Below are positions 40,620-58,133 of a stretch of 64,000 nt of DNA, piece after piece. The position numbers and the translations under genes were made by a program. Where the stretch lies: positions 896,001 to 960,000 of the forward strand of contig CBDFGR010000003.1 in NCBI GenBank assembly GCA_965247115.1, in the 5' to 3' direction. Within the stretch, counting starts at the first letter, position 1, and each line of letters begins with the position of its first letter. This DNA is from Myxococcota bacterium (GTDB lineage Bacteria; Myxococcota_A; UBA9160; SZUA-336). Under the pieces are notes generated by a model. That model made no database searches. It had not been told where the DNA came from and saw only the letters and a program-made list of their open reading frames with translations.

Positions 40620-41126
40620 TTAGGCCAAATAACCACCGCGGAAATAGACCAAGGGTGCGCCTTCGGGATCGGCGGTGAAGTCGACCACCCGGCCCAAGAC
40701 GATCGAGACGCCGTGGCGCTCGATGACCTCTTCGAGCGCGCAGTCCATGACACCGATGGCGCCGTTGTAGGTTGGCGCGCCGGTGGCCAGCGTGCTCCAG
40801 CGGCCAGCCTCGAACCGGTCGGCGCCTTTAAGCGGGCTTTTGCCGGAGAACAGGTCGACGATGTCTGCGGCGCCCTGCGGCAGGTAGTTGATGGCGAAAT
40901 GTCCGGCTTCGAGCACGCTGGCGAGCGCCGAGGTCTTGTTGTCGATCGAGACCAGCATGGTCGGCGGATCGGCGGTGACATGGGTCGCCGACAGCGCCAG
41001 CAGGCCGGCCGGCCCGCCGCTACCGTGCGCAGTGACAATGGTTGCGCCGGTGGCGCGCTGACCGACCGCCTGCCAGAATGTTTTGACGTCTATGGTTTTG
41101 GCGTCCGAGTCGCGTTCGTTCGCCAT
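40620..41126 (-). CDS. Flavin reductase family protein
   Basis: ATGATIVT, VTADPPTMLVSI, HFAINYL, TGAP and PLVYFRGGY motifs. Confidence 0.9.
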   Translation of the reverse strand: MANERDSDAKTIDVKTFWQAVGQRATGATIVTAHGSGGPAGLLALSATHVTADPPTMLVSIDNKTSALASVLEAGHFAINYLPQGAADIVDLFSGKSPLKGADRFEAGRWSTLATGAPTYNGAIGVMDCALEEVIERHGVSIVLGRVVDFTADPEGAPLVYFRGGYLA

Positions 41127-41271
41127 ACCGATATCCTTCACCTTGTAAAGGACGCAAACTAGGCTAGGCGATCGGGCGGAGGCAAGGTTGCCCGCAATAC
41201 GGCGCTTGAGAAGCCGCCGCACGCGACCTATGTGATCGCAACGCGCAGCGACAAAGAAGAACTTGAGCCTC

Positions 41272-42597
41272 ATGAGCGAAAAACGGCAGTTGCACCTCGG
41301 TGCCTTCATGCGCCCGGCGACCATCCATACCGGCGGCTGGCGCTATCCCGGCGCCGCCGCCGACGCCAATTTCAATTTCCCGCAGATGAAAAAATTCATC
41401 CAAAAATTGGAGGCCGCGCGGTTCGATGCGTTTTTCATGGCCGACCACCTGGCGGTGCTCAACATGCCGATGGAGGCGCTCAAGCGCAGCGCCACGCCGA
41501 CCTCGTTCGAGCCGTTCACGCTGCTGCCGGCGTTGGCCGAGGCCACCGAACATATCGGTCTGGTCGCCACCGGCTCGACCACCTACGACGAGCCCTATCA
41601 CCTGGCCCGCCGGTTCGCCTCGCTCGACCATATCAGCGGCGGCCGCGCCGGCTGGAACATTGTCACCACCTCGAACCCGGATGCGTCGTTGAATTTCGGC
41701 CTCGAAGAGGCGCTCGAACACAGCGACCGTTATGCCCGCGCCCGCGAGTTTTATGACGTGGTCACCGGCCTGTGGGACAGTTGGGCCGACGACGCGTTTC
41801 TGCAAGACCAGGAGAGCGGCATCTATTTCGATCCGGAAAAACTGCATGTGCTCGACCACAAGGGAAAGTATTTCTCGGTGCGCGGGCCGCTCAATATCGC
41901 CCGGCCGATCCAGGGCTGGCCGCTCATCGTGCAGGCTGGCTCGTCAGACGCCGGCCGCCAGCTCGCAGCGGAAACGGCCGAGGCGGTCTTCACCTCGCAC
42001 TCGGACCTGGCGGCCGGGCAACAATTTTACACCGATGTGAAGGCGAGCGCCGCGAGGGTCGGACGCGATGGCGATCATATAAAAATCCTGCCGGCATGCT
42101 TCGTGGTGATCGGCGATACGGTCGAAGAAGCGCGCGCGAAACGGGCGAAAATCGACAGCCTGGTCCATTTCGACAGCGCGATCGCGTCGCTGTCGATTGC
42201 CCTCGGCCACGACGCCTCGAAGTTCGATCCCGACGGGCCGCTGCCCGACATTCCCGAAAGCAACGCCAGCAAGAGCTGGCGCGAGCGCGCCATCAAGATG
42301 GCCGCGCGGGAGGACCTGACGGTGCGCCAGCTCGCGCAGCGGCTCGGCGGCTATTCCGGCGCGGCCATGGTGGGGACGCCCGAGACCATCGCCGACGAAA
42401 TGGCAGAATGGCTCGAGACTCGCGGCAGCGACGGCTTTACCGTGATGTTCTCCCACTTGCCCGGCGGGCTCGACGAATTCTGCGACCGGGTGGTGCCGGA
42501 ATTACAGCGGCGCGGACTGTTCCGGCGCGAATATGCGGGCGCCACCTTGCGCGAGAATCTCGGCCTGCCGCGGCCGGCCAACCGATACTTCGAATAG
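41272..42597 (+). CDS. LLM-class flavin monooxygenase, NtaA/SnaA/DszA family
   Basis: FDAFFMAD, ARRFASLDHISGGRAGWNIVT, LWDSW, QAGSSDAG and GATLRENLGL motifs. Confidence 0.94.
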   Translation: MSEKRQLHLGAFMRPATIHTGGWRYPGAAADANFNFPQMKKFIQKLEAARFDAFFMADHLAVLNMPMEALKRSATPTSFEPFTLLPALAEATEHIGLVATGSTTYDEPYHLARRFASLDHISGGRAGWNIVTTSNPDASLNFGLEEALEHSDRYARAREFYDVVTGLWDSWADDAFLQDQESGIYFDPEKLHVLDHKGKYFSVRGPLNIARPIQGWPLIVQAGSSDAGRQLAAETAEAVFTSHSDLAAGQQFYTDVKASAARVGRDGDHIKILPACFVVIGDTVEEARAKRAKIDSLVHFDSAIASLSIALGHDASKFDPDGPLPDIPESNASKSWRERAIKMAAREDLTVRQLAQRLGGYSGAAMVGTPETIADEMAEWLETRGSDGFTVMFSHLPGGLDEFCDRVVPELQRRGLFRREYAGATLRENLGLPRPANRYFE

Positions 42598-43032
42598 GCG
42601 CGCCGCAGCCCACTCTACGCCCCTCGCTCCGGGCTATGGGCGTCTCCGCGAAGCTACCGAGCATCCTCGTGCGCGAGCGACGCCAGTCGGAGTCGTCGAG
42701 GCGGGAAAGCCACCTGCGGTGCGGTCCGCCTGGCTCTGCTTCTCAACAGCCTCGGCTGGCCTCTCTTGAGGCCGCCAGATTCGCCGTGCTCTTGGATCGC
42801 TTCGACGAGACGCCTGATGCGATCGGCAGACCGACGTGTACCCAGCAGATCCGGGACGAGCGGGGGGCGGCGCTGACCTTGACTAAGCAGGCGTCCCGGG
42901 CTTCGGCTCCGGGCGTCTCTCCTGTGTCGACTGTCCAGTGAGAAGCTTCCACCGTGGCTACATTTCGCCGATCCAGAGAGTCCTCGAAGATCGTGGTGGT
43001 TCGGTAAACCACCATAGCTGCAAGCGAAATGC

Positions 43033-43077
43033 TGGTGACCCAGGCAGGATTCGAACCTGCGACTTCTTGCTCCGGAG
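43033..43077 (-). repeat. Distal att site: 45-bp duplicate of the tRNA-Arg 3' part
   Basis: TGGTGACCCAGGCAGGATTCGAACCTGCGACTTCTTGCTCCGGAG is identical to 58056-58100; identity ends at the anticodon loop. Confidence 0.97.
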
Positions 43078-43183
43078 AGAAGCCAGGGCGTAATGGCGAG
43101 TAGTCGCCAGTATCAGTCCGTCAATGATATCAGTAACATACGCGCCATTGGTGTCGGCGAGTATTGGCCCGTATCAGCCGGTC

Positions 43184-43208
43184 GGCACCTATTTGGCACT
43201 GATTTTGA
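43184..43208 (+). repeat. Candidate integrase arm-type site
   Basis: GGCACCTATTTGGCACtgATTTTGA, 23/25 identical to 57990-58014. Confidence 0.7.
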
Positions 43209-43214
43209 CGCTGA

Positions 43215-43505
43215 TCAGTGTACCTCGCTGCCCGGCGGGGGTTCCTGTGCGACAGCCCTCACAGCCTTCAGAGGAACGTTGTGCCCCACCTCCGCGGCGA
43301 AGGCCTTGTGCAGCCACCACCAGGCCAGGCTCAGGATCACGCCGTCCCGGACGTCCTCGGGCACGGCCTCGCGGATGCGCTCGGGCTGCCGCTCCATGGC
43401 CGCGTGCACGGCCTCGAGGATATGCCGGGTGTCCGTCTCCGCTCGGTGTTTCCTGTACGTGTCCCCGATCGCGCGGAGTGCCACCTTCGCCCATGCTTCA
43501 TACAT
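43215..43505 (-). CDS. Hypothetical protein (96 aa) downstream of the capsid gene
   Basis: GAGGAG RBS; helical protein-like sequence; co-oriented with the packaging genes. Confidence 0.6.
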   Translation of the reverse strand: MYEAWAKVALRAIGDTYRKHRAETDTRHILEAVHAAMERQPERIREAVPEDVRDGVILSLAWWWLHKAFAAEVGHNVPLKAVRAVAQEPPPGSEVH

Positions 43506-43591
43506 TCCGACTCCTCGCAGTGATAAGAAGTGGGGACTGGCGGCTCAGCAACGAAACCACCCGTCCCCAGCGCAGGCCGCAGCAACGAAGC

Positions 43592-44899
43592 CTACGCTTG
43601 AACTGTCCCAACGCGCAGCGCAGACGGGCGCACGGTCTGGCCACCGAGCCGCGCAAACGGCAAGATGCCGATGTTCGGCGCGTAGCGCTCCACGAGGCGC
43701 TGCAGGCGCAGCTCCATCCTCTCCGCGATGACAAAGGCCGTGTTGAAGTCGCCCAGAATCACCGGCTTGTTCGCGATGTTGTCCGCGTTGGAGAGGAACT
43801 CGGTCATCACCATGGGCCGCGAGAACAGCTGACCTGGCAGCTGGTTGACTGGGAAGATCGGTCGTGAATCGTTGTCTTCCAACTTGAGGATCAGGCCGAA
43901 CGTGTCCGAGTTCATGAGCCATGTGGAGTTTCGGCGGTACTGCGCGGCCAAGTCGGTCCAGATGTTCACCATGCGCGGGTACGAGATCCCGTTGTCCCCC
44001 GCAACGGGGGTCGCGTAGGTGGACGCGTCGCCCACCACCACCGTGGAAACGCGATCGTCCGACGCGATCCCCTCCGGCTTCCCTACGCCGTCACCGAGCA
44101 GGAACGCGAGGTCCTGATCGAGCGAGAAGACCTCGCTGATCAGCGACGACAGCGCGCTCTCAAGGTTCCCGACGCTGTCCTGAAGCAGCTCCTGCGGGAT
44201 CTCGATGACGTCGGGGGACCAGGCGTGCACGGGCACCCGCTCCATGCCGAAGGTCGGGTTGTTCTGCACCGTCGGTGCGGTCCCGCCCGTCACGTACGCC
44301 TCGCCCTTCCAGTTGCCGTCGCCCTGGAGGAGCGTAGAGGTGTACATCTTCGGATTGACCGAGGCCTCGTTGATGGTGGGCCACACAGCGGCCGGTCCCG
44401 ACGTCTGCACGACGCGGGCGCCGGCGAGGCGCACCGCAGCGTTCCCTGCGACGGCCCGCAGGATCTCCTGCCGGAAGTCCTCCGGTACGGTGAAGCCTCC
44501 CAGGGAGTCGTCGCCCGAAAGTAACGCGTGAACCTCGTCCGGTCCTGCGCCGTGCTTCTCCGCCGCCTCGATCATCCGAGTGTGGGAGTTCTCTTGACTC
44601 CCGCAGTGAATGAATGCCTCGAAGATCGCGCGGTGCGCCTCGTCTGGCACACCGTGGTCCTGCTCGGGCGAGGTGACGACGATCGGCCTGTCGACCGGTG
44701 TGGCCATTTCGACTTCGAGCTCGAGTCTCTGCATGTCCGTCTTGTAGGCCCGAACGTCCACCATGGATTTATCGAACTTGATCTGTAATTCCGACCGTCG
44801 AGCGGGGAACTTGCGCAAGTCGTCGCCGATCTTGCGCGCCGCGTCGATCGCGCGGCTGAGCTTCTCCTGTGCGTGCTTGAGTTCAGCTTGTACACTCAT
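43592..44899 (-). CDS. Major capsid protein, HK97 family
   Basis: GGFTVPEDF, ELLQDS, AFLLGDGVGKPEGI, WLMNSDT..LED, LFSRP and ILGDF motifs; coiled-coil N-terminus; AGGAG RBS before ATG 44899. Confidence 0.92.
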   Translation of the reverse strand: MSVQAELKHAQEKLSRAIDAARKIGDDLRKFPARRSELQIKFDKSMVDVRAYKTDMQRLELEVEMATPVDRPIVVTSPEQDHGVPDEAHRAIFEAFIHCGSQENSHTRMIEAAEKHGAGPDEVHALLSGDDSLGGFTVPEDFRQEILRAVAGNAAVRLAGARVVQTSGPAAVWPTINEASVNPKMYTSTLLQGDGNWKGEAYVTGGTAPTVQNNPTFGMERVPVHAWSPDVIEIPQELLQDSVGNLESALSSLISEVFSLDQDLAFLLGDGVGKPEGIASDDRVSTVVVGDASTYATPVAGDNGISYPRMVNIWTDLAAQYRRNSTWLMNSDTFGLILKLEDNDSRPIFPVNQLPGQLFSRPMVMTEFLSNADNIANKPVILGDFNTAFVIAERMELRLQRLVERYAPNIGILPFARLGGQTVRPSALRVGTVQA

Positions 44900-46403
44900 G
44901 TTTACTCCTGCTTGTGTTCCACTCGGCCACATGGCGCGGTGGGGGATCTTCAATGGGTGGTGTAACGTGGACGCGTTCAGCGTCGCGGGAGAAATCCCAC
45001 GTGCCGTTGGCCAGTGTGATCCCGAGGTCTCCGCTCGCGCGACCCTGCGAGGCGAGCCAGGCTGCGCCTGCGACGCAATTCGCCAAGTCGTCATGAGCCT
45101 TTCTCGGATGGTCTATCGAGTCCCTGCCACTCCGGGCGGTTCTCCGCTCCAAGGAACACAATTGTGTTAGGAGCTTCGGGTGGTCGGGAAGCTCGACGCC
45201 GCCGGAGTTGATCAAAGCGAGCAGCTCGATGTAGAGTGCTGACTTCGTAAGCTCGCTAGCGACGTACACGACGTCGTGCTTGGCGAACGCGTCGACCACG
45301 AACCCCGCCGCGTAGCGATCGCCGGAGACCTCACGGCAGTCGTACATGCGCAGCAATGGAACCAGCTCGGCGACGACGGTTTCAGGACTGAACGGTGGTC
45401 GGACCTCCCGGACCACGTCGATGACGACGGGGTGCTCCTCGGACTCGCGGTGCGCGATGGCCAGCGTGAACGAATCCCCGCGACCACCGCTCGGATCGGC
45501 GAAGGCACAATACGAAAATTCTTCGAGTGGCGGCAGCGAGTGGCGAGCCTCGACGACGCAGCTCTCGGCGGATTCGCGTGAGACAAAGGCCGCGATGCCG
45601 TCGCGGAACGTCGCCAGGTACTCAGAGGTGTTTCGCTCCGGGTCCGTTTTAATTTCCTTGGCGATCCACGCTTGATCCAACGTCGGGTTCATTGAAACGC
45701 TACTGGCCTGCCAGACGAGGACCTCCGAGTCATCTACACCGTAGTGAGTCGCGTGCGCGTCGTACAAGACGCCGCTCTTCCCGTACGGGGAGCTGAAGCC
45801 GATCAGCCGACCGCGGGTGGTGATCAACGTGGGACGGACCGCACCGACGATCTCGGTGTCTGGATTTGCCGTCGTGTCGTCCATCCAAAAACCAATTTCG
45901 TCGCATATGGCAGCGACGATCGTGCGGCCACGAATCGAGCGAAAGCTCGAAGTCGCCACCTCGATGGTGACTCCGGTGGTCAATTCAATCGACTGCGCCG
46001 TCTCCCGCACGATGAGCTTTTTCAGCGCGGGACACGAATGCAGCAAGCCTCTCGTGTACTTGAAAACGACGAGCGCTTGCGGTCGATCGGCGCCGAGGAC
46101 CGCGACGATCGGGACTTCGCCTGGGCTTAGGTGTTCGGCGTAGTTCTGAAGCGCCAAAAAAATCGCGATCAGCGCGACAATCTGTGATTTGCCAGCTCGT
46201 CTTCCGCAGATCAACCACGCCTCTCTGTATCCAGCGTTGCGGGGGGCGTTGCGTCCCGTGAACATCCGGAACAGCACGAGTTCCCTACCAGCTAGGGGCA
46301 GGCCGAAGATCACGGCGAGCAGCACTCGCCACGCCGCCCAGCTCTCACCAACGAAGGTCCGGCCGAGCAACCGCGGATGCGTCATGAGGTCGACAACGTT
46401 CAT
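44883..46403 (-). CDS. Terminase large subunit
   Basis: Walker A GRRAGKS, Walker B AAICDE, motif III SSP, and nuclease acidic motifs FADPSGG..D and HDDLAN. Confidence 0.88.
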   Translation of the reverse strand: MNVVDLMTHPRLLGRTFVGESWAAWRVLLAVIFGLPLAGRELVLFRMFTGRNAPRNAGYREAWLICGRRAGKSQIVALIAIFLALQNYAEHLSPGEVPIVAVLGADRPQALVVFKYTRGLLHSCPALKKLIVRETAQSIELTTGVTIEVATSSFRSIRGRTIVAAICDEIGFWMDDTTANPDTEIVGAVRPTLITTRGRLIGFSSPYGKSGVLYDAHATHYGVDDSEVLVWQASSVSMNPTLDQAWIAKEIKTDPERNTSEYLATFRDGIAAFVSRESAESCVVEARHSLPPLEEFSYCAFADPSGGRGDSFTLAIAHRESEEHPVVIDVVREVRPPFSPETVVAELVPLLRMYDCREVSGDRYAAGFVVDAFAKHDVVYVASELTKSALYIELLALINSGGVELPDHPKLLTQLCSLERRTARSGRDSIDHPRKAHDDLANCVAGAAWLASQGRASGDLGITLANGTWDFSRDAERVHVTPPIEDPPPRHVAEWNTSRSKHECTS

Positions 46404-47041
46404 TTCGAAGACTTGGCCTCGTCGATCTCTGTCGCGATGGTGTGCAAGCTCTCAGCCTCGGCGACCTTCAACGGCGTGACGCCGATGACAGCCAGGTGTC
46501 GCAACGTGAGCGCCTGCAGGGTCGAGAACTTCTCCGCGTCCTTTGTCGGTCCGGGGTTCTGGAGGAAACGGCTCATCAGCGCGTCCGCCGCGACCTGCGA
46601 CCGGAGCCACCCGTCGATGGCGCAGATCTGTGTAGTCGAGACGTTCTCCGTTCCACCAAGGTCCTCCACGATCGCGGTCGCCTGCTTGCTACGCATTTCG
46701 AGGAGGGGCTTCAGACTCTCGTGCACCTCTGCGGTTTCGAGGAAAGCGTCCACATCCCTTCGGCGGACGGCATGCTTTTTCTTCATCGCGGCGCTGACTA
46801 GCTTGCCGTGTGCGGCGCGTCGCTCCGGCGGCCAAAATCCCGGGATGCCGGCGTAGGGCGGCTTGCCCAGGCGGACGTTTTGGGCCCTCTGCGCTTCGAC
46901 CCTCTCCTTACTCCAGCCAGCCTCCCTCGCGTCCACCAGGCGGCCTCGCTTGAAAAAATGGACGCCGTTGCCGTCGTAGAGGCCGTCGCGGCTCGGGCGG
47001 CCGTGTTTGTCGAAATGGGTTGGGCGTTTCTGTTTCGACAC
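46400..47041 (-). CDS. Hypothetical protein in the terS position
   Basis: Basic N-terminus and helical C-terminus; stop overlaps the terL ATG (ATGA). TerS function is inferred from position only. Confidence 0.6.
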   Translation of the reverse strand: MSKQKRPTHFDKHGRPSRDGLYDGNGVHFFKRGRLVDAREAGWSKERVEAQRAQNVRLGKPPYAGIPGFWPPERRAAHGKLVSAAMKKKHAVRRRDVDAFLETAEVHESLKPLLEMRSKQATAIVEDLGGTENVSTTQICAIDGWLRSQVAADALMSRFLQNPGPTKDAEKFSTLQALTLRHLAVIGVTPLKVAEAESLHTIATEIDEAKSSK

Positions 47042-47634
47042 TTTTCTGCGTCGCTCCAAGGAGATTTGGATTTTTCGCACGCACTCCCACGCACCGGAGA
47101 GGGCCACCGGCCGAGATCCCGGGGGCCCACTTCGTCGGGATTGCGTCAGGGAAGTGGGCTCCGGCGTCTGAACACATAGGCCGCGGCGCGCCGAAACTTG
47201 AGCGGGACCGAGGGGGGCTCACGGTGTGGACCGAGCAGAGGCCAGCTCGGCGCCCCGGGGGTCGGGGCTGGGGACTCGCGCCCGCCCGCGCTTGCTGCAC
47301 AAGCAAGCGGTCGTGGGCTGAACGCACCAAATCCCTAATGAAATAGAGGTGTTAGAGGTTCCTACCCTCGACGCAGGTGCCAGATTGGTGCCTCCGCGAG
47401 GACCAGAATCACCAGTATAATCAGTTACTTACGGCCTTGGCTCTATTTTGACACCGATAAGTAGATGGTAAAAACACACTACACAAAAATGTGAGCCGAG
47501 CGCGCTTCACGATGACGCCACGGCGTTGGCGCAGCTAGGCCGAGCGGAGAGGGTCGGCGCAGGGAGGAGAAGGGGCTGAGGGGCTCATGTAGACGCGCCC
47601 GTTGTCATGCCGGCCCTCCCATCCGACGTGCGGG

Positions 47635-48459
47635 CTAGGCCCGGATCCCCCAGTTGATCCCGTTGCGGAGGAGGGTCTGGAAGCCCTCGGTATCCCAGGA
47701 GCCGCGAAACGTCCCCGGACTCTTCTCGTCGGGGGAGACGCTGGCGTCCACGAAGGGCTGGCCGTCTGTGGACGGCGAGTGGCAGTGACCCAGGGCGAAG
47801 TACGTCACGCCTCCCTGGCCGACGTCCTTGGTGTAGCCCAGGACCCGCGTCTTCCCGTCTGGGAGCAGCGCGGCGGTGTGGTCGTACTCCAGCCAGGAGA
47901 ACGTCGACGGAGTCGGGTCCTTGGGAAGCTCGGTGGTGAGCAGGAAGTGATGCTTCGACTCGGGGTCGAGCTCCAGGAAGTAGAGCTCATCCATGACCTC
48001 GAAAGACTCGGGGAGGCCGCGGGTGAGCGGGTGCGACCGATCCGCGACGTCGACGCGGAACTTGCACAGTGGCGGGTGGTGGATGACGAGGGCGCCAAGG
48101 GTCTCGTGGTGGCTCCCCTTCTCCATCTTCCGGCCCCCACCGGGGAGTCGCGCGGCCTTTCCGGCGGAGCTGCCGTGCAAGGCGAGCCAGCGACCGCCGC
48201 CCTCGAGCCAGCTCTGGACGAACTCGTTCTGCGCGTCGTTCAGATAGGGTCCGGCCACGTAGGTGACGAGGAACTGTCGATCGGTCAGCCACTGCTCGAT
48301 CGCGCTGAAGTCGTTCGCGACGGTCGCGTGGACCTCTTGCCTTTCCTGCAGGAGCTGGAGCAAACGCAGGCGCGCGTAGTCCATGTCGTGTCCGGCGGTC
48401 TGGCCCGCCGGGAAACCCCCGGTGACCACGTGGACTCGGACGGGTTCGGAATGGCTCAT
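47635..48459 (-). CDS. ThuA-like domain protein (cargo)
   Basis: GGRWLALHG, HPLTRGLPESFEVMDELY and GQGGVTYFALGH motifs. Confidence 0.85.
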   Translation of the reverse strand: MSHSEPVRVHVVTGGFPAGQTAGHDMDYARLRLLQLLQERQEVHATVANDFSAIEQWLTDRQFLVTYVAGPYLNDAQNEFVQSWLEGGGRWLALHGSSAGKAARLPGGGRKMEKGSHHETLGALVIHHPPLCKFRVDVADRSHPLTRGLPESFEVMDELYFLELDPESKHHFLLTTELPKDPTPSTFSWLEYDHTAALLPDGKTRVLGYTKDVGQGGVTYFALGHCHSPSTDGQPFVDASVSPDEKSPGTFRGSWDTEGFQTLLRNGINWGIRA

Positions 48460-48562
48460 CGGACGCTCCTTCTCGCAAGTCGTCGTGCGAGCATCCCACG
48501 ATCGCGCCGCGTCGTCTAGGGAAGGCGACAGGCGCCGCGGGACTCAGCAGGTCGGGTTGGGC

Positions 48563-48709
48563 AGCTCGGTTCCCCTCCTCTCCACACGCCCTGTGTGGAG
48601 TCTCTCCGGGCGAGCCAGCGAGCTGGGCTTATAGCCCCAGCTCGCGGCTCGCATCGATCGAGGAGAGCCTAGAAATCCGTGCTGGTGCGGCAGCTCGCGA
48701 GCTAGCTCG
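48563..48709. other. Candidate replication origin: palindromes and AGCTCG repeats
   Basis: Inverted repeat at 48610-48652 centred on TTATA, hairpin at 48580-48600, and six AGCTCG/CGAGCT copies at the 3' end of the primase-helicase gene. Confidence 0.5.
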
Positions 48710-50759
48710 CATCGGCAGCCCCCGTGGAGGTGAGCTGGACCAGTTTCTTTTTCCGCCCCGTGCCTTCGACCATCTCAGCCCGGCCGTCCTCCACGGCCTC
48801 CTCGATCATCTTCTTGGCCTTCGTGCTCGCTGTGCTGTTGGGGCGGGACTTTGAGCCCGCGGGCTTGGCGTCCATGATTCGCCATGCGATGTCCGATTGC
48901 GTGAGCTGCTCCCCGGGCTTGAGGTAGTCCTCCAGCAGCTTCTCCGGCCGTTTCTTCTCGGGACGCCAGTACCGGATCAGCCCTGGTTCATCTTCCGAGT
49001 CGGCGACGCGGAAGGTGTGCTCCCGCTGGGGCACGGCGTTGCCGTCCACGGTGAGTCGGCGGTGGTGGTGATCACCACCGCGGTCAAGCCGCCACTGAGC
49101 TACGGTCACTGCCCCGATGGCGCTGGCCCCGCGGGCGGAGACGCGGGCGTCGGAGCGGTCCGCGTGTCCCATGTGGTGTACCAGGACGAGGTAGGTCCCG
49201 AACTCGATCGAGATCTCGGCCAGGGCGTCGAGCCAGCCGCTCATCGCGGTGTTGTCGTTCTCGTCGATTTCCAGGGGCTTGAGCCGTGACAGGGAGTCCA
49301 GGAGGACGAGGCCGAAGGGCTCGCCGTGATCGCGGGCGTACTCGAGCAGCTCGCGGAGCAGCTTGAGGCCCTCCTGGTCGAGCGTGCGGATCTTCCGCGA
49401 TTGGCGCAGGTCCTTCCCGATCATCAGGACCCCGTCTTCCCAGTCGGGGTAGCGGGGTCGGAACATTCCAGCGTCCGATCTCTTCTCTGCCATGCGGCGT
49501 GCGACCTTGTCGATACGCCGGACGTCCTGCTCATTCGAGAGGATCAGCACGCGCGTGCCGGACAGCTTCGGTGCCCCTGCCCACGGCGACTCGCCCGTAG
49601 CCCAGGCGAGCCCGAGGTTGATACCGAAGGTGGTCTTCCCCGACTGGTTGTGACCGAGCAGGGCGTGGATTCCGGGCTCGGGATCTAGAAAACCGGGTAG
49701 CGGGCTCTCGGGATCAGGCTGCTTTCGGAGATTGCGCAGCTCGCGGCCGGTGAGGCCAACGTCGTACGGTGAGTTCCGGGGCTCTGCAGCTTCAGTCCGC
49801 ACCTCGCCCTGCTCGGCCGCGATCGCCTTGCGCGCCGTGTGCTCGTAGTACCTGAGAGGTTTCTGCTCCAGCTCCGCCGTCTCGTGCGAGGCCACCATGA
49901 GGGCCAGGAGCTGCGCAGGCGCGACACCCAAGCGCAGGGCCTGCTGGCACATGGCGTAGTCGATGTTGGACTGGTCTGGCAACCCGTTTGGCTTGCGCTT
50001 GGTCTCGCCGACGTCGCGGTCGTTGAAGTACGCGTGGAGCATCTGGAAGCGCTGTTCCAGGATCTCCAGCGTCTCGTCGGTGAGCTTGTCGTCGAACTCG
50101 CCGACGTCCGCCAGCTCGAGTGTTTCGACATCTAGGCGGAAGGGCTCGAAGTCTCCGAAGTCGTATTCGAGAGCTGGATGCCGTTGGACGATGCGGCACG
50201 GGCGGGGCGGGTCGTACTTATAGTTCAGGGAGCCGGGGATGCGCATGCACCTGCTGGCATCCGTCGCCGCCATGTCCCCATCGATGGCCTTCGCGATGCC
50301 CTTCAGGACACCTTCGAACGCGCGCACGTTCGACTCATCGAAGGCGTACGCTTCTCGGAGCCGCCAGTACAGGTGGACGCCCCCACCGGACGCGACGATC
50401 ATGGTAGGCGGTGGCAGGCCCGCGTCCTGGCGGCGCTGCTCGGCCTGCTCGAAGGTGGTGCCGTCAACGTCGCACCATAGGGCGCCGGCCCCGTGGAGGT
50501 TGTCCTTGCCACCTCCACCTGCAGGATCGCGCCACGTCGCGACCCGGATGAAGGGCGCCTCCCCGGGCTCCTGATCACCGAGGTCCCCCACGTCCAGCGA
50601 GAGAGCCTCTTCGGTGCTGAGCAGCCATGGAGGCTTCACGCGTCCGTCCGCGTAAAGCGTGCGCGGCTCGACCCAGCCCTGGGTGCCGCTGAAAAGCGTC
50701 TGGATGAAGACGGGAACGTCGTCCAGATTGACGACATACGGAATTTCGATAGAATCCAC
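48702..50759 (-). CDS. Primase-helicase fusion (RepB-type AEP primase + AAA_25/RepA-like helicase)
   Basis: LWCDVD, SGGGVHLYW and RIPGSLNYK primase motifs; GHNQSGKT, LVLLDSL, LVHH and RGASAI helicase motifs. Start placed at GTG 50759. Confidence 0.88.
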   Translation of the reverse strand: MDSIEIPYVVNLDDVPVFIQTLFSGTQGWVEPRTLYADGRVKPPWLLSTEEALSLDVGDLGDQEPGEAPFIRVATWRDPAGGGGKDNLHGAGALWCDVDGTTFEQAEQRRQDAGLPPPTMIVASGGGVHLYWRLREAYAFDESNVRAFEGVLKGIAKAIDGDMAATDASRCMRIPGSLNYKYDPPRPCRIVQRHPALEYDFGDFEPFRLDVETLELADVGEFDDKLTDETLEILEQRFQMLHAYFNDRDVGETKRKPNGLPDQSNIDYAMCQQALRLGVAPAQLLALMVASHETAELEQKPLRYYEHTARKAIAAEQGEVRTEAAEPRNSPYDVGLTGRELRNLRKQPDPESPLPGFLDPEPGIHALLGHNQSGKTTFGINLGLAWATGESPWAGAPKLSGTRVLILSNEQDVRRIDKVARRMAEKRSDAGMFRPRYPDWEDGVLMIGKDLRQSRKIRTLDQEGLKLLRELLEYARDHGEPFGLVLLDSLSRLKPLEIDENDNTAMSGWLDALAEISIEFGTYLVLVHHMGHADRSDARVSARGASAIGAVTVAQWRLDRGGDHHHRRLTVDGNAVPQREHTFRVADSEDEPGLIRYWRPEKKRPEKLLEDYLKPGEQLTQSDIAWRIMDAKPAGSKSRPNSTASTKAKKMIEEAVEDGRAEMVEGTGRKKKLVQLTSTGAADAS

Positions 50760-50851
50760 TTTAGTAACCCTCTGCTCGTGGGTGGCTGATCTGGAGCCCC
50801 GCTGACCGTCGCGTCGGCGGGGCTTTATCGTGGGAGCCCGGAACGTCCCAA

Positions 50852-51067
50852 CTACTTCCGGCGACGCGCCGAGGCGCGCTCTGTGGCCGTCACGCCTCCC
50901 CTCTCCACGAACTCGCGGAGCGCTGACGGCGAGAAACGCAACCACCGCCCCAATCTGACCGCGGGAAGTACTCCCTGGTCGACAAGGCCGTATACCATCT
51001 GGCGATCTGCGGAGAGCAACCGGGCGACTTGGCGCGCAGTCAGCAGTTCTGAGTCGGGCTTTTGCAT
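50852..51067 (-). CDS. Excisionase-like HTH protein
   Basis: LLTARQVARLL...VY..V..G.LPAVRLGRWLRF pattern. Confidence 0.85.
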   Translation of the reverse strand: MQKPDSELLTARQVARLLSADRQMVYGLVDQGVLPAVRLGRWLRFSPSALREFVERGGVTATERASARRRK

Positions 51068-51230
51068 CTGGCGATTCCTTGAGGGGGCATGGCCCGTGCT
51101 CGCGAGCCATCGGGAAGTCTAGCGAGCCTTCCCCCCTTGGCAAGGTTTACTGACTCTATAAAGATCCATGATGACACGGATCGCCGATTCGTAATAAACC
51201 CACCTATAAGCGCTCTAAATGGATGATTAG

Positions 51231-51246
51231 GTGTAATCCCTTACAC
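51231..51246. promoter_or_regulatory. Palindromic operator candidate in the divergent control region
   Basis: GTGTAA-TCCC-TTACAC in the AT-rich gap between the xis-like gene and the RHH/int genes. Confidence 0.45.
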
Positions 51247-51289
51247 TGCGTGCTTGACCACTGCGATGAATTGAGATACTGGAAACCTA

Positions 51290-51502
51290 ATGAACGACCC
51301 AGAAAATATTGACCTCGGAGGTCGACCACCGTTCCCCCCGGACAAGCTCCGGGATCGGGCGGTGAAGTTCATGGTCACCCGGCGCGAGCTGGAGGCCTTG
51401 CAAGCAGGTGCGCGAGCGGCGGAGCGCAACCTTGCGGAGTACGTCAGGTCGATCGTGCTCACCCGGCTCGGCATTGCCAGAGAGGAGGAAGAGAACCGAT
51501 GA
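51290..51502 (+). CDS. Small ribbon-helix-helix-like DNA-binding protein
   Basis: GGRPP..RDRAVKFMVT..E...LQ..A......LAEYVR pattern; stop overlaps the int ATG. Confidence 0.7.
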   Translation: MNDPENIDLGGRPPFPPDKLRDRAVKFMVTRRELEALQAGARAAERNLAEYVRSIVLTRLGIAREEEENR

Positions 51503-52674
51503 CTCAACAGCGCGGTCAGATGATAAAGGATCCAACACACGACGGTGTGTGGAGGCTCCGCTGGTTCGAAGGTCGAAACTCGAAAGGCAAGAGGATCTAC
51601 CGCTCGAAAACGGTGCATGGCAAGCGTAAGGCTGCCGAGAAGGAGCTGCGTCGTATTCTCCACTCGAAGGACGTCGGCAAGTACGGCTCACCCAGTCGGG
51701 TGACCGTTGACGAGCTGCTCGACAAGTGGCTGGACGAGGCCCATGGCCAGCGTGTCTCCGGCCGCACGCTCGCCACGCACCGCACCTTGCTCGATACCCA
51801 CGTCCGCGAGGTGATCGGACACCGCCGAATTGACCAGCTGAACACCCTGCAGGTGCAAGAGCTGCTGAACGGAATGAGTAGGCGTCGTGGGAGGAAGCTC
51901 TCGCCGCGGACGCACCAAATCGTGTTGCAGCTCCTCCGCTCTGCGCTCAGAAAGGCCCGCACCTGGAACTTCATTGCGCACGACCCCACCGACGACGTCG
52001 AGGTGCCCCGCGACGCCAGCCAGCGCGGTAAGCGACGAGTCTTGAGCATCGAAGAGCTGCGCCGCTTCCTGGCTGAAGCGGGTAAGCGCGATGACCGAGG
52101 GAACTCTACGCGGTGGCTGACGCTCTGGTCGCTGGCGGCTACGACGGGTGCGAGACCAGGTGAGCTGCTGGCGTTGACGTGGGCGGACATAGATTTGGAC
52201 AGGGGTGAGATCCTGATCTGCCGAGCGCTTACCAAGGACGTGGAGGGAAAGCTCCTGGTCGGTCCCACAAAGACCCAGCAGACCCGCCGCGTGTCGATCG
52301 ACACTCCCGTCATCGACACCCTGGCGGCGCACAGGCTCGCTCAGCGTGAATACGCATTGGGGTTGGGACCCGCATACGACCGAAGCGGAGATCTCGTCTT
52401 CCCCACCCATCGAGGCGCCCTGCTCCACACCGCGAATGTGCGCCGCGAGTACCTGGCTGTAGCTAAAGCAGCGGGGATCACGGGTGCGCGCGGACCCTAC
52501 GACTTGCGCCACACCGCGGCGAGCCAGCTCTTGGAGGCGGGTGTCCCGGTCACTGACGTCGCTCAGCGGCTTGGGCACTCCGTCGACACCCTGACCACCA
52601 CCTACGCGCATGCGTTGCCGGATAACCAGCGCCGCGTCGCCGACATCGCCGGCAAGCTTGTCTTCGGGCGGTAA
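51499..52674 (+). CDS. int: Tyrosine integrase
   Basis: TGARPGE (R), PTKT (K), YDLRH, RLGHS and TYAH (Y); N-terminal arm-binding-like domain. Confidence 0.95.
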   Translation: MTQQRGQMIKDPTHDGVWRLRWFEGRNSKGKRIYRSKTVHGKRKAAEKELRRILHSKDVGKYGSPSRVTVDELLDKWLDEAHGQRVSGRTLATHRTLLDTHVREVIGHRRIDQLNTLQVQELLNGMSRRRGRKLSPRTHQIVLQLLRSALRKARTWNFIAHDPTDDVEVPRDASQRGKRRVLSIEELRRFLAEAGKRDDRGNSTRWLTLWSLAATTGARPGELLALTWADIDLDRGEILICRALTKDVEGKLLVGPTKTQQTRRVSIDTPVIDTLAAHRLAQREYALGLGPAYDRSGDLVFPTHRGALLHTANVRREYLAVAKAAGITGARGPYDLRHTAASQLLEAGVPVTDVAQRLGHSVDTLTTTYAHALPDNQRRVADIAGKLVFGR

Positions 52675-53697
52675 TCCGATGGTGCTGAACCGAGAGTTTG
52701 CTTTTCCGAGCTAACGCTCGGATCTGTCGTAAGCTGGCAGACGTCGGTTGATATGATCGAGTTGTGCGGATAGGGGTTCCTTTGTGGCTTACTTCCTCCA
52801 AGGCTTCGCGGTCTTCCTCGGTGTAGTGGCAGGCACAGCCGTAACGATCCTCGTCGGGCTCTACTTCCGCCGAAGAGAGGAAGACGCAGCAGACGCGAAA
52901 TCTGCGCTTTGAACTCGAACTCAATATTGGGAAGATCGAGAAGTGGCTTGAGGAACTCCAGCGCTATCGGGATGCCGTAAACGGGGACTCTCTCCAGACC
53001 TACTTTGGTTACTTCGATCTCCACAGATTCGTGTCCGTAACTATGAACGCAATGTTTCTGTCTGGCCTTCTTTACAGGAAGCTAGACCGTGGAGAGATCG
53101 GCAAACTCCAGATGATAGTCTCCGAATTCTCAGCCAACGGAGAGCAATTCATCACGAGTCAGCTAAACGAGAACAAAGAGGCACTCGAGCGCTGCACGAT
53201 GGAAGGTCATTTGGACCTATGGACCTCCGACTTCAAACAGCGTGCGGTTGCCCACATCCACTTCTGGGAAAAGAAATCGGAATTACCTAGTTTAGGGTCT
53301 TGGCATTCTTCTAGCGAATCCCTTGCTCTTTGAGCTTCGCGATTAGCTCCGCTTGTGTACCCGCGCCTTTCGTGCTGTTACACGCGCCACAGAGCAGTTG
53401 CAGGTTGTCGAAGTGATCGGTCCCGCCTTTGCTCTGCGGAACTACGTGGTCAATTGTGAAGTTGCGGAATGGGAACGCTTCGCGGCATCCCCCGCAACGC
53501 CCCTCCTGCTTCCCGAATAGCTGGTGCTTGTGCGTGCGGTAGCTCGGGAGCTTGCCTAGGTCCGTGCGCTTCGGAATGTCGGAGCGTCGGATCGGCTCGA
53601 AGTTGTGGAACAGGTCAAGGTCGATTTGACGTACGCGGAGCTGTACGAGGTCCACGGCCTTATCGGATATATCGATCCCGACCCATTGACGGTCTAG

Positions 53698-54972
53698 CAG
53701 GCTGCGGAGAAAGTGACTGGTTGAGGGGTGGTCCTTCCGACGAGGGGGTTCACCGGCCGAGGGGCGGGGCGCGATTCCCGGTTCGAACCGGTCTTGGGCT
53801 CCGCTGATCGCGGGGCGGTTTCGCACATGACCTACGTGGCCTCCAGCAGCTTGCGGATCCGGATCAGGTTGTAGGCTGCGGCCGTGAAGGTGAAGACCCA
53901 GCCGACCCGATCCGTGCCGCGGTGTCGGGTCTTGCGCATCAGCCCCACGGTCTTCATCCAGCCGAAGACCTCTTCCACCCGTTTGCGAAAACGCTGACTC
54001 AGTTCGTAGCCCCGGTGGCGCGTCGTCCGCCCGTCGATCGCGCTGCGTCGATTCGTCGTGTTCTGCGCCACGTGTGGGGTCACGCCCAACTCTCGAAGCT
54101 CTTCCACGAACCCCTTCGTGTCGAAGCCCTTGTCTCCGCCCAATGTCCTCCGACGCCCGCCTCCCAGACCTTCCACCATCTCGAGCGCCGCTTCGCGCTC
54201 CGCATATCCCGACGCCTGCGTGAGCTTCGCCGCGACCACCAAGCCGTTCCGGTTCTCCGTCACCACGTGTCCCTGGTACGCGAGTCGGGCGCCTTGGCCT
54301 CTCATACCGGCGAGTCGTGCGTCGGGATCCGTCGTCGACGCATGCGTCTGGTTGCTCCGCTTCTCGCCTCGGAAGTTCACCGTCGGGTTGCCCGGGTCAT
54401 CGTCGTCTCTCCGTTCCTCGTCCTTCCGTACGAAGCTCTTCTGGCTCGCCCACGCCTCGATCAGCGTCCCGTCTACCGTGAAGTGCTCCAACGACACCCA
54501 TCCCTCGGTCTCGGCCTGCTCCAGCACTGCGTCGAAGAAGTGCTCGGCAATCTCGCCCTTGAGCAGCCGGTCTCGGTTCTTCGTGAACACCGTGGCGCTG
54601 AACACCACCTCGTCAAGCTCCAGACCCACGAACCAGCGATACAGCAGGTTGTACTCCAGCTGCTCCACCAGCTGCCGCTCGCTCCGGATGGTGTAGAGCA
54701 CCTGCAGCAGCAGGGCGCGCAGCAGCTGCTCCGGGGGCACGGACGGGCGCCCTACGCCTCTGGCGTAGATCGCGTCGAAGCGCGGCGATAGCCGCTGCAG
54801 CGCCGTGTCGACCATGCGCCGCATCGCTCGAAGCGGATGATCATCCGGAATCCGCGACTCCAGCGACACGTAGCTGAACATCCCGCCCTGAAGCGTCCCC
54901 TGTCCTCTCACGCCTCCCCCTTTGGGGCTCGCTCCCAAGGTACCCTTCGATGAGGAGTTTTTCAGCAGCCTG
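53698..54972 (-). mobile_element. IS5-family insertion sequence (1275 bp)
   Basis: IRs CAGGCTGCgGAgAAAgT and CAGGCTGCtGAaAAAcT; CTAG duplicated at 53694-53697 and 54973-54976. Confidence 0.93.
53832..54911 (-). CDS. IS5-family DDE transposase
   Basis: MFSYVSLE.RIP.DHPLR, YNLLYRWFVGL, VDGTLIEAWAS, STTDPDARL, GGDKGFD and RKRVEEVFGW motifs. Confidence 0.94.
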   Translation of the reverse strand: MRGQGTLQGGMFSYVSLESRIPDDHPLRAMRRMVDTALQRLSPRFDAIYARGVGRPSVPPEQLLRALLLQVLYTIRSERQLVEQLEYNLLYRWFVGLELDEVVFSATVFTKNRDRLLKGEIAEHFFDAVLEQAETEGWVSLEHFTVDGTLIEAWASQKSFVRKDEERRDDDDPGNPTVNFRGEKRSNQTHASTTDPDARLAGMRGQGARLAYQGHVVTENRNGLVVAAKLTQASGYAEREAALEMVEGLGGGRRRTLGGDKGFDTKGFVEELRELGVTPHVAQNTTNRRSAIDGRTTRHRGYELSQRFRKRVEEVFGWMKTVGLMRKTRHRGTDRVGWVFTFTAAAYNLIRIRKLLEAT

Positions 54973-55946
54973 CTAGGCGTTCTGCGGCCACGCAAGCCGT
55001 GGCGCAACCGGAGAATGGATCTAGAACTACATCGCCTTTGTCGGAGCTGGCCTTGATAATGCGGTCAAGTAGCGCCAGTGGTTTCTGTGTAGGATAGCCG
55101 ACACGCTCTTTGGCTCGTGAGTTAATTGGGGAAATGTCAGGCCACAAATCGGCGACCGCCTGGCCAGGCATTTCATCTAGATAGCGCTTCAACTGAGGGA
55201 TCTTACTCTCGGTATAGATCCGACCCTCGTCATCGAGTTGGTTCATCTTGTCTTCCGTCATACGCCAAGCCTTCATGATGCCGTGGAACTCGTAGACGGG
55301 TCCACGTCCCCCTGGAGCGTTCAGATTGTCTAGCCGATACGATCTCCCGTCATTGTCCTTGTGTGTGAACTTTCCCTTGATGTAGTCCGCCGAATAGGGG
55401 ATACGAACCCGGTTGAAGGTGTAGCGATCGCTGTGCGAGTAAAAGAGGATCCTGTCGCTAATCGATCCGAAACGCTTGGCGTCCGCATGGAAATTGAACC
55501 GCTTCCATGTGATTTCGTTGCGGAAGTTGCTTTGCCCGAGAATTGCATCCATGAGGGTTTTCAGATAATGGGACGCAGTAGGGTCACAGTGAAGGTATAG
55601 GCTTCCTGTAGGTTTCAGAACGCGCTTCATCTCGAACATTCGAACAGCCATCATGATGGAGTACGACTTCATGCTGGAACCGTGCGCCAACCCCGCCGCG
55701 TCGATAATCGAGTACACGGCGGGGTTCTGCTCTGCGATCTCTCCGTGCCATGCAAGATCCACGTCGTCTAGCGTCCACGTATCTTTGAACGCTGCACCCG
55801 CTGCCTGCGATCCGATAGGAGCGCTGTAGTTCTTATTCGAGTTGAACGGTGGGTCGAGGTAGATTAGGTCGACACTCTCGGAGTTCATACCGCGCATGAT
55901 GTCGAGATTGTCCCCGGTCCACATGGTCCGGTTCTTCCAGTTGGGA

Positions 55947-56825
55947 TCACTCAATATCAAGCTCAAGATTCGTGTTTGTCTTCGGGTAGGCACGTTGCAG
56001 CATGCGCCTGAAATGGTTCCATTCTATAGATCCACGCATGATCGCCATCACACCGGTTAGATGTCTTTGTAGCGCTGGATGTCCAATATCGGTGGTTAGC
56101 CACTGATGGTGCATTGCTCGGCGACGTCCCGTTTCAGTTTTAGGGTTTAGTCTCTCCAGTTCTTTCCTGACGCCGGGTGCTAGTCGATCCCAGACGAAGT
56201 CGTTTGTGTAGTGACCAACGACACTCGGACGATTCACCTTCATCCCCTTCCATTCCCAGCTACGGAGTCTGAAAATCTCCTTGTAGAACTCATCCGGGAA
56301 CCGCTTCGCCCATTTTGCATGTTCAGCGACGAGGTATTTGTCGAGTATCCGGTTAAGTGCATTCCGGTCCCGAATTTCTTGGTAACTGGTCGCTTCATCG
56401 ACCAAGGCAATGATGCCTACGATTGCTAGTCCCCGCAGAAGAACTTCACAGGCCGCCGCAGTACGCGCCTGTGCTGGCATGAGCACACCATCTTTTCTGG
56501 CGCGGAGGTACACTTCACATACTTTAGGGAGCAGTTCTGCCTTATAGCCATAAGCTTGTCCACGCCCAGGAATTGCAAACTTTATACGCCTGCTCGAAAC
56601 GGCTAAGTCTTTGTCTACATAGGGTTTTAGCGTCTCTGACGCGAGAAATGGGGCGATCTCCTCGAAACGGGAACCTCGGCCGTGAGGCCGAACTGATCGG
56701 TCAAGTGCTCGTAGAAAAGACGATTGTGTGAGTATGCGGGTGCCGTCATTGAGCACCGCACACTCGACGATAATGGGGCCAATATGCAGCTCGCCAGTAT
56801 GTGTTGCCTTGGGAAGGATGCTCAT
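55947..56825 (-). CDS. P63C domain protein
   Basis: CAVL.DGTR, GIIALVDEATSYQ, WAKRFPDEFYKEIFRL and HHQWLT.DIGHPAL motifs. Confidence 0.88.
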   Translation of the reverse strand: MSILPKATHTGELHIGPIIVECAVLNDGTRILTQSSFLRALDRSVRPHGRGSRFEEIAPFLASETLKPYVDKDLAVSSRRIKFAIPGRGQAYGYKAELLPKVCEVYLRARKDGVLMPAQARTAAACEVLLRGLAIVGIIALVDEATSYQEIRDRNALNRILDKYLVAEHAKWAKRFPDEFYKEIFRLRSWEWKGMKVNRPSVVGHYTNDFVWDRLAPGVRKELERLNPKTETGRRRAMHHQWLTTDIGHPALQRHLTGVMAIMRGSIEWNHFRRMLQRAYPKTNTNLELDIE

Positions 56826-57718
56826 TGCGTTACTCCCAGTCCGCGAGTGACGGTAAGGTCGAAGGCTTCGAAGGGATCAGCCTTCCGTAGGTTGTAGCGG
56901 TAGCAGAACTCGTCCACGTAGCGCTGCAAGTGCTTCCGGCTTACGCTGTGGAACTGTCCGAACATGCCGCGCTTTAGGAGAGCCCAAAACCCCTCAATCG
57001 TGTTGGTGTGAATGTCGCCGTCTACGTACCAGTCTTGGTGCTTGATTACAGCGTGCGGCAGAATCCTGGCCATTCCGAGATAGGCTTTGTACTCGTCTGT
57101 AATCAAGCTGGACCGCGTGGTATCGATGCGCTCGCGAACGAAGGCGCGCATGTGGCGGCCTTTCATCTTGTCCTTAGCCACGGCCTTCGCCGTTACCTTG
57201 CCCTCACGCTCTACAGCTCCAATCACGGGCGCTTTCTCGGTGCCTCGGCCTCTCTTATGCGTACCGCCCGGCCCTGTGCCCTTGGTGCCTCTTCTGGGCT
57301 TCCCGCCGACGTAGGTTTCGTCCATCTCGATGATGCCTGTAAGCAGGTTGCGCTGTTCTGCTTGGGTCATGGCCTTGCGGATTTGCATCGAGATCCGCCA
57401 AGCAGTGTTCTTATTCACGCGGAGGTCACGAGAGAGCTGAAGTGCCGACAGGCCCTTTCTAGCGTTCAGCATGAGCATGATCGCCAAGAACCACTTTTGC
57501 ATCGGCATGTGCGTATGGTGAAAGATCGTGCCGACCGTCACGCTGAAAGAGGTCTTGCAGTCGTAGCACCGATGCCGTCGGCGCTTGTCGTTACTGCGAG
57601 CCGTATTGACCGATCCGCAATAAGGACACGCTACCTCGTCGCCCCAGCGAGTCGCCTCCAGGTGAGCGATGCAATCCGCTTGTGTTGGAAAGCGCTCGAA
57701 AATCCCTATGATGTCCAC
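56822..57718 (-). CDS. IS1595-family transposase
   Basis: Zinc ribbon CPYC...CYDC, EMDETYVGG, ITDEYKAY, HTNTIEGFW and YVDEFCYRYN motifs. Confidence 0.95.
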   Translation of the reverse strand: MDIIGIFERFPTQADCIAHLEATRWGDEVACPYCGSVNTARSNDKRRRHRCYDCKTSFSVTVGTIFHHTHMPMQKWFLAIMLMLNARKGLSALQLSRDLRVNKNTAWRISMQIRKAMTQAEQRNLLTGIIEMDETYVGGKPRRGTKGTGPGGTHKRGRGTEKAPVIGAVEREGKVTAKAVAKDKMKGRHMRAFVRERIDTTRSSLITDEYKAYLGMARILPHAVIKHQDWYVDGDIHTNTIEGFWALLKRGMFGQFHSVSRKHLQRYVDEFCYRYNLRKADPFEAFDLTVTRGLGVTQ

Positions 57719-57766
57719 GACGTATTCCCCTTGCCTGTGCCGATTTGGTTTCCTTTGTCAGAATCC

Positions 57767-57795
57767 AATATGGCGCAGGAAAGGGGGTATGTCAA
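57767..57795 (-). promoter_or_regulatory. Sigma70-type promoter of the IS1595 operon, with the -35 inside the terminal IR
   Basis: Minus strand reads TTGACA-N17-CATATT. Confidence 0.65.
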
Positions 57796-57989
57796 GACCC
57801 TAAACTAGGCAATTCCGAAAGAAATTCCAAGAGCACAAACTCACCCTCGCGGAGATCGCTGGGAACCTCAGCTGAGAGGACTCTTACAACGCGAACTCTT
57901 CGACCCGGGGTCGCATATGGCCTGGCGCTCTAGGATTGCTCCTGACGGCCGCGCAGGTTCGGCTCCGGCTGGCACAGGCTTCGACAATA

Positions 57990-58014
57990 GGCACCTATTT
58001 GGCACCCATTTTGA
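57990..58014 (+). repeat. Candidate integrase arm-type site
   Basis: GGCACCTATTTGGCACccATTTTGA, matching 43184-43208. Confidence 0.7.
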
Positions 58015-58055
58015 ACCGGGTGGCAGGGGCGCCTCTCGTAAGTCCCTATCGCCAT

Positions 58056-58133
58056 TGGTGACCCAGGCAGGATTCGAACCTGCGACTTCTTGCTCCGGAG
58101 GCAAGCGCTCTATCCAGACTGAGCTACTGGGCC
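58056..58133 (-). tRNA. tRNA-Arg(CCG)
   Basis: GGCCCAG acceptor stem, TAGCTCAG..GGATAGAGC D arm, CTTGC-CTCCGGA-GCAAG anticodon arm, GGTTCGAATCC T loop and encoded CCA. Confidence 0.97.

Follow-up and report, generated by a model that had tools for sequence, protein, structure and literature searches.

Described phage satellites either borrow the large terminase (TerL) of a helper phage, as do phage-inducible chromosomal islands (PICIs) as well as the Staphylococcus aureus pathogenicity islands (SaPIs), or bring TerL together with a portal and a protease, as do the capsid-forming PICIs (cf-PICIs). Here we describe an integrated island of a Myxococcota genome (positions 43033-58100 of a 64-kb stretch of contig CBDFGR010000003.1, hereinafter the window), which encodes its own TerL and an HK97-fold capsid protein, and in which no portal, protease or tail gene was detected. 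The island is one variant of a widespread family of phage satellites. The family is apparently undescribed, as no description of islands defined by this TerL was found in the literature searched, most subscription papers and supplements being outside its coverage, where lists of satellite variants could include such elements.

The cf-PICIs carry portal, protease, head-tail connector and HNH genes, and their TerL and capsid trees agree (10.1101/2022.09.08.507074; PMC10085698). Like the cf-PICI EcCIEDL933, the island falls in the range of about 10-15 kb and has an integrase, a regulator, a replicase, its own TerL and capsid, and no tail genes; it differs in having no portal, protease or adaptor/connector gene, and in the discordant ancestry of TerL and capsid, while its sole HNH gene is a passenger of an insertion sequence (IS). 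SaPIbov5 encodes Ccm, an HK97 capsid homologue with a delta domain; this protein undergoes cleavage although the satellite lacks a protease, works with the portal of the helper and forms no shell alone (PMC8569155). SaPIbov5 thus resembles the island: both carry a single HK97 capsid homologue of phage origin but no protease, and SaPIbov5 depends on the helper portal. However, SaPIbov5 has the helper cos site and hence uses the helper packaging machinery, whereas the island has its own TerL. Ccm has also diverged strongly from the capsid of its helper, whereas the island capsid shares 59% identity with that of a phage.

Classical PICIs and tycheposons are integrated at tRNA genes, as is the island, and have an integrase, a regulator, a primase and packaging genes, often with a capsid-morphogenesis gene and/or a small terminase (TerS) but without a portal (PMC10085698; 10.1101/2020.12.28.424599); tycheposons have terS or else a capsid gene (10.1101/2020.12.28.424599). 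Both rely on the helper TerL, whereas in the window family TerL is a core gene. The island shares with classical PICIs the integrase, regulator, primase-replicase and site-specific integration, its regulator being of the ribbon-helix-helix (RHH)/HTH_17 type and not AlpA, MerR or Stl, but with its own TerL it is not free of other packaging or structural genes. It differs from P4 in that its open reading frames (ORFs) gave no match to Psu, Delta, Sid or Ash in Pfam or PHROGs, and from the PICI-like elements (PLEs) found in Vibrio cholerae, which have a serine recombinase (PMC9618062), in its tyrosine integrase and Myxococcota-related host. The island hence lies outside the gene sets of cf-PICIs, PICIs, P4 and PLEs, as the preliminary description of this locus had maintained.

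EPIP, an 11-kb satellite of Mycolicibacterium, has a partial set of late genes (TerS, capsid, scaffold, adaptors and tape measure) with no portal listed (PMC12822802). Unlike the island, it has a serine integrase and no listed TerL; in turn, the island lacks adaptors and a tape measure, although its relatives carry the latter. The virion-encapsidated elements known as VEIMEs carry no capsid gene (PMC9618062), and a preprint on haloarchaeal satellites concerns spindle-shaped viruses (10.1101/2025.02.15.638363). A general feature of satellites, small size and a gene order that is kept in many hosts, with no complete virion module, is seen in the window family (31 att-bounded members of 8-18 kb).

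Boundaries and gene content of the island

The island is bounded by a direct repeat of exactly 45 bp, with copies at 43033-43077 and 58056-58100 and a spacing of 15,023 bp. The right copy forms the 3' half of an intact tRNA-Arg(CCG) gene (58056-58133, minus strand), the integration target; the left copy duplicates this half and marks the opposite island end. An IS1595 insertion is delimited by 30-bp terminal inverted repeats (53277-53306 and 57789-57818) and an 8-bp target duplication (53270-53277 and 57818-57825), and subtraction of the 4,548 bp defined by them leaves an island of 10,475 bp. Recomputation reproduced exactly the repeat and both lengths given in the preliminary description. Just inside both ends there are tandem 11-bp repeats (43184-43205, with units at 43184 and 43195; 57990-58011, with units at 57990 and 58001), which are the sole four matches of this motif in the window, two per end, and are probably arm-type sites of the integrase. 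In both run X1 and run X2, which stem from a single sample (possibly the source), 43033-47656 is contained whole and with 0 differences in a short-read contig; thus, the island junctions are not an assembly artefact. As the 45-bp repeat is longer than the assembly word, the contigs split there, and the attP and attB junctions are beyond their resolution.

The tyrosine integrase (51499-52674, plus strand; PF00589, E 2e-24) and an RHH (NikA-like) regulator (51290-51502, plus strand; 23.7 bits, under the cut-off of 27) diverge from a series of intact genes on the minus strand. These are the genes for an excisionase-like HTH_17 protein (50852-51067; Pfam/PHROG match), a RepB-type primase fused to an AAA_25 helicase (48702-50759; 685 aa from the chosen GTG start), a ThuA-like cargo protein, the product of orf 46400 (46400-47041, the longest ORF starting at 47107), TerL (44883-46403; phrog_2, E 4e-18), the HK97-fold major capsid protein (43592-44899; 435 aa, PF05065, E 2e-41) and the small protein orf96 (43215-43505). 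Pfam and PHROG matches bear out both this order and the families originally assigned to it.

The reported absence of portal, protease and tail genes also held: no match to these was obtained for the 14 element ORFs scanned against PHROGs, and when 291 six-frame segments of at least 30 aa were scanned with local head/tail hidden Markov models (HMMs), genes for a portal, protease, neck or tail were likewise absent. The sole portal score in the six-frame scan (8 bits, E 0.015) was antisense to the primase gene. A portal could still hide in an unnamed ORF, or DNA could enter the shell without one, and mini-genomes of about 9 kb with an integrase and an HK97-fold protein, without portal or tail, have been reported (PMC13669383). 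However, these have an encapsulin-like capsid and no terminase, whereas the island has a terminase and a capsid of the plain siphophage type; moreover, the two unnamed ORFs, orf 46400 (213 aa) and orf96 (96 aa), do not reach the length of a portal, which in the fetched loci mostly lies at 411-800 aa. We regard both variants as very improbable.

orf96 is a real, though unnamed, small protein with three credible relatives (38-63% identical) and a third-position GC content of 0.85. It had no Pfam match and no usable Atlas match, its alignment found no relatives among viral contigs, and its profile, run on 225 genomes of the host's class (genome G556 was left out of scoring), matched only its own genome and one doubtful site (E 9e-4, within an 810-aa frame).

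The gene upstream of terL belongs to cluster c1 of the family considered below: it matches the c1 HMM at 23 bits, the best of 1000 shuffles scoring 6.6, and aligns with the c1 profile in hhalign at E 3e-4. It overlaps terL by 4 bp (ATGA). Its Atlas lead is Terminase_4 at 0.88, which is sub-threshold, and its nearest Atlas clusters are most often from Myxococcota. Pfam gave weak matches only for 79 members of c1, with Terminase_4 in two of them (best E 0.051), and a search of PDB sequences with the c1 family yielded no match. By its position and the sub-threshold lead, orf 46400 is a candidate small terminase.

The terminase family and the slot behind terL

The window TerL retains Walker A (GRRAGKS), Walker B (DE168-169), an SSP-type coupling motif and the acidic residues of the nuclease (D303, D438/D439); these motif names are our own assignment from general knowledge. 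Walker A, Walker B and the nuclease residues are invariant in an alignment of 30 family members including the window protein. The family is large, as 4264 of the 8000 scored candidates match the window TerL, and the best 120 matches (45-53% identical) are mostly unnamed or annotated as "hypothetical protein". For this reason, and because several cf-PICI core genes are missing, current satellite models probably overlook these islands.

Gene neighbourhoods were compared in the best 80 of 559 genome loci and the best 80 of 85 viral loci, with genes called by our own ORF picker and clusters labelled with PHROGs via one representative each; 94 downstream singletons of the genome loci were labelled in addition. 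In the viral loci, 59 singleton ORFs downstream of TerL were outside the PHROG scan, hence the counts for these loci are floors. The usual order is integrase, xis/AlpA-like gene, primase/helicase, a gene of 120-180 aa (c1), terL and a variable slot. Among the genome loci (n = 80), c1 was found in 68, an integrase in 58 and a primase/helicase in at least 49, whereas a portal was observed in one (L073, 353 aa) and in none of the 70 loci with at least 4 kb downstream. For 31 copies, att repeats mark both ends (7,961-17,712 bp; 27 copies lie at tRNAs). None of these has a portal, nor did a scan of the 74 remaining genes of at least 200 aa in these copies reveal one. The near-total absence of portals is thus a property of the integrated members in general. 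In the host's class, the family is present in 11 of 225 genomes.

Cultured phages have only distant TerLs (8 records, 20-27% identity), and Rctr16k, considered as a possible member, was rejected as belonging to a different family. No match was obtained in a search of PDB sequences with the TerL family, and a single-protein scan of viral contigs with the window TerL alone gave no relatives. Members of the family (47-48% identity, annotated as hypothetical protein) also occur on plasmids of Komagataeibacter and Methylobacterium (NZ_CP019881.1, NZ_CP134887.1, NZ_CP121649.1 and NC_010373.1).

The contents of the slot vary. In the 80 genome loci it holds a tape measure gene (n = 16), a baseplate hub (n = 12), a protease (n = 7), a neck gene (n = 7) or a capsid (n = 3), and in some loci none of these. 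Hence the TerL-capsid pair, by which the preliminary description had defined a candidate new type of satellite, is not the defining unit: the core comprises the integrase, primase/helicase, small upstream gene and terL. What stands of that proposal is a satellite-type island that encodes TerL and a capsid but lacks a portal.

Nevertheless, terL followed by a capsid gene without a portal was observed in seven other loci. In Thiomicrospira sp. ALE5 (L003) this arrangement forms an att-bounded island of 9,294 bp at tRNA-Leu. In the host's class, L335 spans 9,122 bp between 20-bp repeats, with the integrase divergent from rep, c1, terL and capsid, as in the window; it is apparently inserted at what we take, from sequence likeness, to be a comM-like gene (L335:15527-17104). 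L338 has the same terL-capsid arrangement, its left boundary not being found. A scaffold gene is added in Microbulbifer (L044), and a protease and a tape measure in Jiella (L077) and in L094 and L109. Elsewhere in its genome, the Jiella carrier has three PF04860 portals. The portal-less capsids form five lineages (window; L003; L335 and L338; L077, L094 and L109; L044), with 21-33% identity between lineages where BLAST aligns them, and a single-protein scan of viral contigs with the L335 capsid found no relatives. The capsid-bearing loci are scattered across the TerL tree, which was built with FastTree only and has weakly supported deep nodes; the separate capture of the capsids is accordingly derived from capsid divergence and not from a test of tree topology. 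In addition, L347 shares 78.6% identity with L003 in TerL and 63% in the integrase, yet has no capsid. As capsids without portals recur in seven other loci, five lineages in all, a deleted cf-PICI is unlikely, and given the modular slot, a single deletion from a cf-PICI or a prophage does not explain the window. Six loci (L008, L012, L019, L031, L105 and L144) have several myovirus-type late genes behind terL without capsid or portal, among them neck, protease, baseplate hub, chaperone and a tape measure with a lysozyme-like domain.

The host genome (98% complete) contains two more satellite-like islands, L323 (contig C3, about 2,333.6-2,347.1 kb) and L325 (about 652.8-666.7 kb), with genes for an integrase, a primase, a neck protein, a P27-type TerS, a phrog_9 (HK97-type) TerL and a short tape-measure-like protein. 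Their TerLs are 66% and their tape measures 87% identical to each other; no capsid or portal was seen in the stretches covered, and the far boundaries were not found. Since this TerL differs from that of the window, the carriage of a terminase without a portal arose with more than one TerL lineage.

Such gene sets could be taken to mean that TerL and the capsid mainly poison helper assembly, the island itself being packaged rarely or by helper enzymes: what lies in the slot is often a lone, incomplete late gene (hub, neck, short tape measure) that can build nothing by itself, and L323 and L325 carry only TerS, TerL, neck and short tape measure among such genes. However, the ATPase and nuclease motifs of TerL, conserved family-wide, would not be needed by a pure decoy, the island has kept its full set of mobility genes, and in satellites interference and packaging are usually coupled. 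A decoy or defence function as the main role is therefore improbable.

Origin and possible role of the capsid

The capsid gene overlaps terL by 17 bp and encodes a protein with a full N-terminal extension, which may be regarded as a delta domain. Its 45 closest listed relatives are 34-59% identical to it. In the fetched loci of these relatives, a protease lies upstream of 39 of 40 distinct capsids with room for it and a portal upstream of 19 of 26, and head-tail and tail genes follow downstream. The window capsid nests in a siphophage capsid clade as the sister of L208 (59% identical). None of the loci of its phage kin has a TerL of the window family, their TerLs being at most 24% identical to it over long alignments. 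Judged by these relationships, the capsid gene was captured from a siphophage lineage, and its source differs from that of TerL. The capsid shows no sign of decay or relaxed selection: its branch length (0.34) is normal compared with that of L208 (0.35), and it keeps 95.9% of the conserved columns, which equals the median.

We consider it likely that the island is a PICI-like satellite whose own terminase packages its DNA via the portal of a helper, while the capsid builds or shrinks the heads. On infection by a helper siphophage, the island would excise via Int/Xis and the arm sites and replicate with its own primase-helicase. Its TerS-TerL would recognise the island DNA and dock on the helper's portal, and its capsid would co-assemble with this portal, maturation being performed by the helper (or host) protease. 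The resulting small heads would fit 10-15 kb and exclude the helper genome. The capsid might act as the sole shell or, as Ccm, be mixed with the helper capsid protein, and the helper, most likely one from the capsid-donor clade of phages, would supply the neck and tail.

Of these two roles of the capsid, we lean slightly towards the mixed or redirecting one. In the alternative, overlapping with the reading above and differing only in the role of the capsid and in taking it as a defining feature, the capsid forms the complete shell, only the portal, protease and tail are borrowed, and the type is defined by TerL and capsid together. The capsid is indeed complete in length and has stayed close to phage capsids (59% to L208), in contrast to a strongly remodelled redirector, and the layout recurs in L003, L335 and L338. 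On the other hand, just 3 of the 80 genome loci have a capsid, capsids in the family stem from five unrelated sources, L347 lacks one in spite of a TerL 79% identical to that of L003, and the precedent Ccm, a delta-domain homologue, cannot form shells alone (PMC8569155). Hence the earlier statement that the island supplies its own shell is unproven, and this stricter version seems rather doubtful.

Several observations weigh against a satellite with a borrowed portal. The contigs, which cannot resolve the att junction, give no direct indication that the island excises, replicates or is packaged, and searches gave no close relative of the element as a whole. By hhalign, c1 shows no significant similarity to the P27-type TerS (probability 0.3-0.7%). 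The window TerL is divergent: its retention of conserved columns (0.84) is the lowest of 30 in the close alignment, and in the broad one it stands at 0.93, where the median is 0.97 (rank 36 of 147), although all catalytic residues are kept. Portals are present in 36 of the 80 viral loci, including 4 of the 29 with c1, and beside the TerL of L073 and L340, the latter a prophage of the same class where a TerL 35% identical to the window one is followed by a portal and a protease-capsid gene. Therefore, the TerL family is common to true phages and islands. Its phage members adjoin at least three portal families (phrog_146, phrog_145 and phrog_2662/12); hence the coupling of TerL and portal is loose here, contrary to the co-evolution assumed initially. 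In a genome of the same genus (G358) there are about eight loci of the window TerL family (L287-L294), most of them broken, which shows that such islands do decay.

These data raise the possibility that the island is a remnant of a prophage or a cf-PICI, whose portal, protease and tail were deleted and whose leftover genes are not yet eroded. Complete phages with portals in the TerL family, the decay in G358 and two IS insertions in the island itself agree with it. The preliminary description had argued that gene overlaps leave no gap for a deleted portal; the overlaps (4 bp and 17 bp) are real, but overlap alone cannot exclude an old deletion. Against a remnant, TerL and capsid come from different lineages, so that a single deletion cannot yield the present order. 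Further, portal absence is the rule among the att-bounded members (0 of 31), the island has a PICI-type primase-helicase replication module, a perfect att core and intact arm repeats, and its capsid has no sign of relaxed selection. A remnant is thus quite unlikely.

The preliminary description also proposed to look for a helper prophage. Four prophage regions were found in the host genome. Lambda-type heads and siphophage tails are seen in two of them (contig C3, about 775-800 kb and 2,575-2,613 kb); the other two resemble podoviruses (the start of C1, and C2 at 252-280 kb). None of these resident prophages has an HK97-type portal or protease, which also counts against the satellite reading, and hence the helper was not identified. 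Still, the prophage tail genes resemble those of the capsid-donor clade, and a broken capsid gene in G358 is 62% identical to the window capsid; thus, phages of the donor clade probably visit the host lineage.

If this common family indeed brings TerL and borrows the portal, the specificity between motor and portal becomes testable in a natural system, cultured carriers being available (Thiomicrospira L003, Microbulbifer L044 and Jiella L077). It would also demonstrate a stepwise route to cf-PICI-like elements by gene capture. Tentatively, at least five separate capsid captures in the slot may have produced elements that form small heads of their own on a borrowed portal and occupy a position between PICIs and cf-PICIs.

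Inserted elements, cargo and neighbouring genes

The IS1595-family transposon (53270-57825, minus strand) carries a transposase, a P63C protein, and methylase and HNH passengers, and is itself split by a second IS with a DUF772/DDE transposase at about 53694-54977. In run X3, the stretch 53713-54955 is missing from two contigs, a weak observation with short overhangs; the IS present at 53.7-55.0 kb of the window has at least 41 copies in G358. Low-GC accessory ORFs of no known family occupy 52602-53333, the plus-strand ORF starting at 53031 being broken by IS1595. A scan for promoters and terminators gave chance-level results only, and no clear pac, cos or ori repeat was seen in the intergenic regions of the island.

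Just upstream of the terminase genes lies a segment of host DNA (47603-48555, minus strand) with the ThuA-like gene (47635-48459). The segment is 96-97% identical to a stretch of the host chromosome (G000:C2:57900-58862), and the gene itself is 97% identical to the chromosomal copy (G000:C2:57942-58766), with 18 synonymous and 6 non-synonymous codon differences; the chromosomal copy adjoins a CoA-transferase-like gene, so labelled by eye. By this near identity, the cargo is a recent capture of a host gene.

In the lambda-type prophage at tRNA-His of the host (L329, G000:C3, about 2,597.4-2,599.0 kb), the portal gene is in two ORFs of 224 and 282 aa. In two of the G358 loci, terL is followed by a tyrosine recombinase of about 200 aa. 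Just outside the left att site of the island, a pair of flavin reductase- and monooxygenase-like genes (40814-42615, labelled by eye) is 99% identical to a pair in G358 (C32:700452-702247) situated near a broken TerL of the window family, and is probably mobile cargo.

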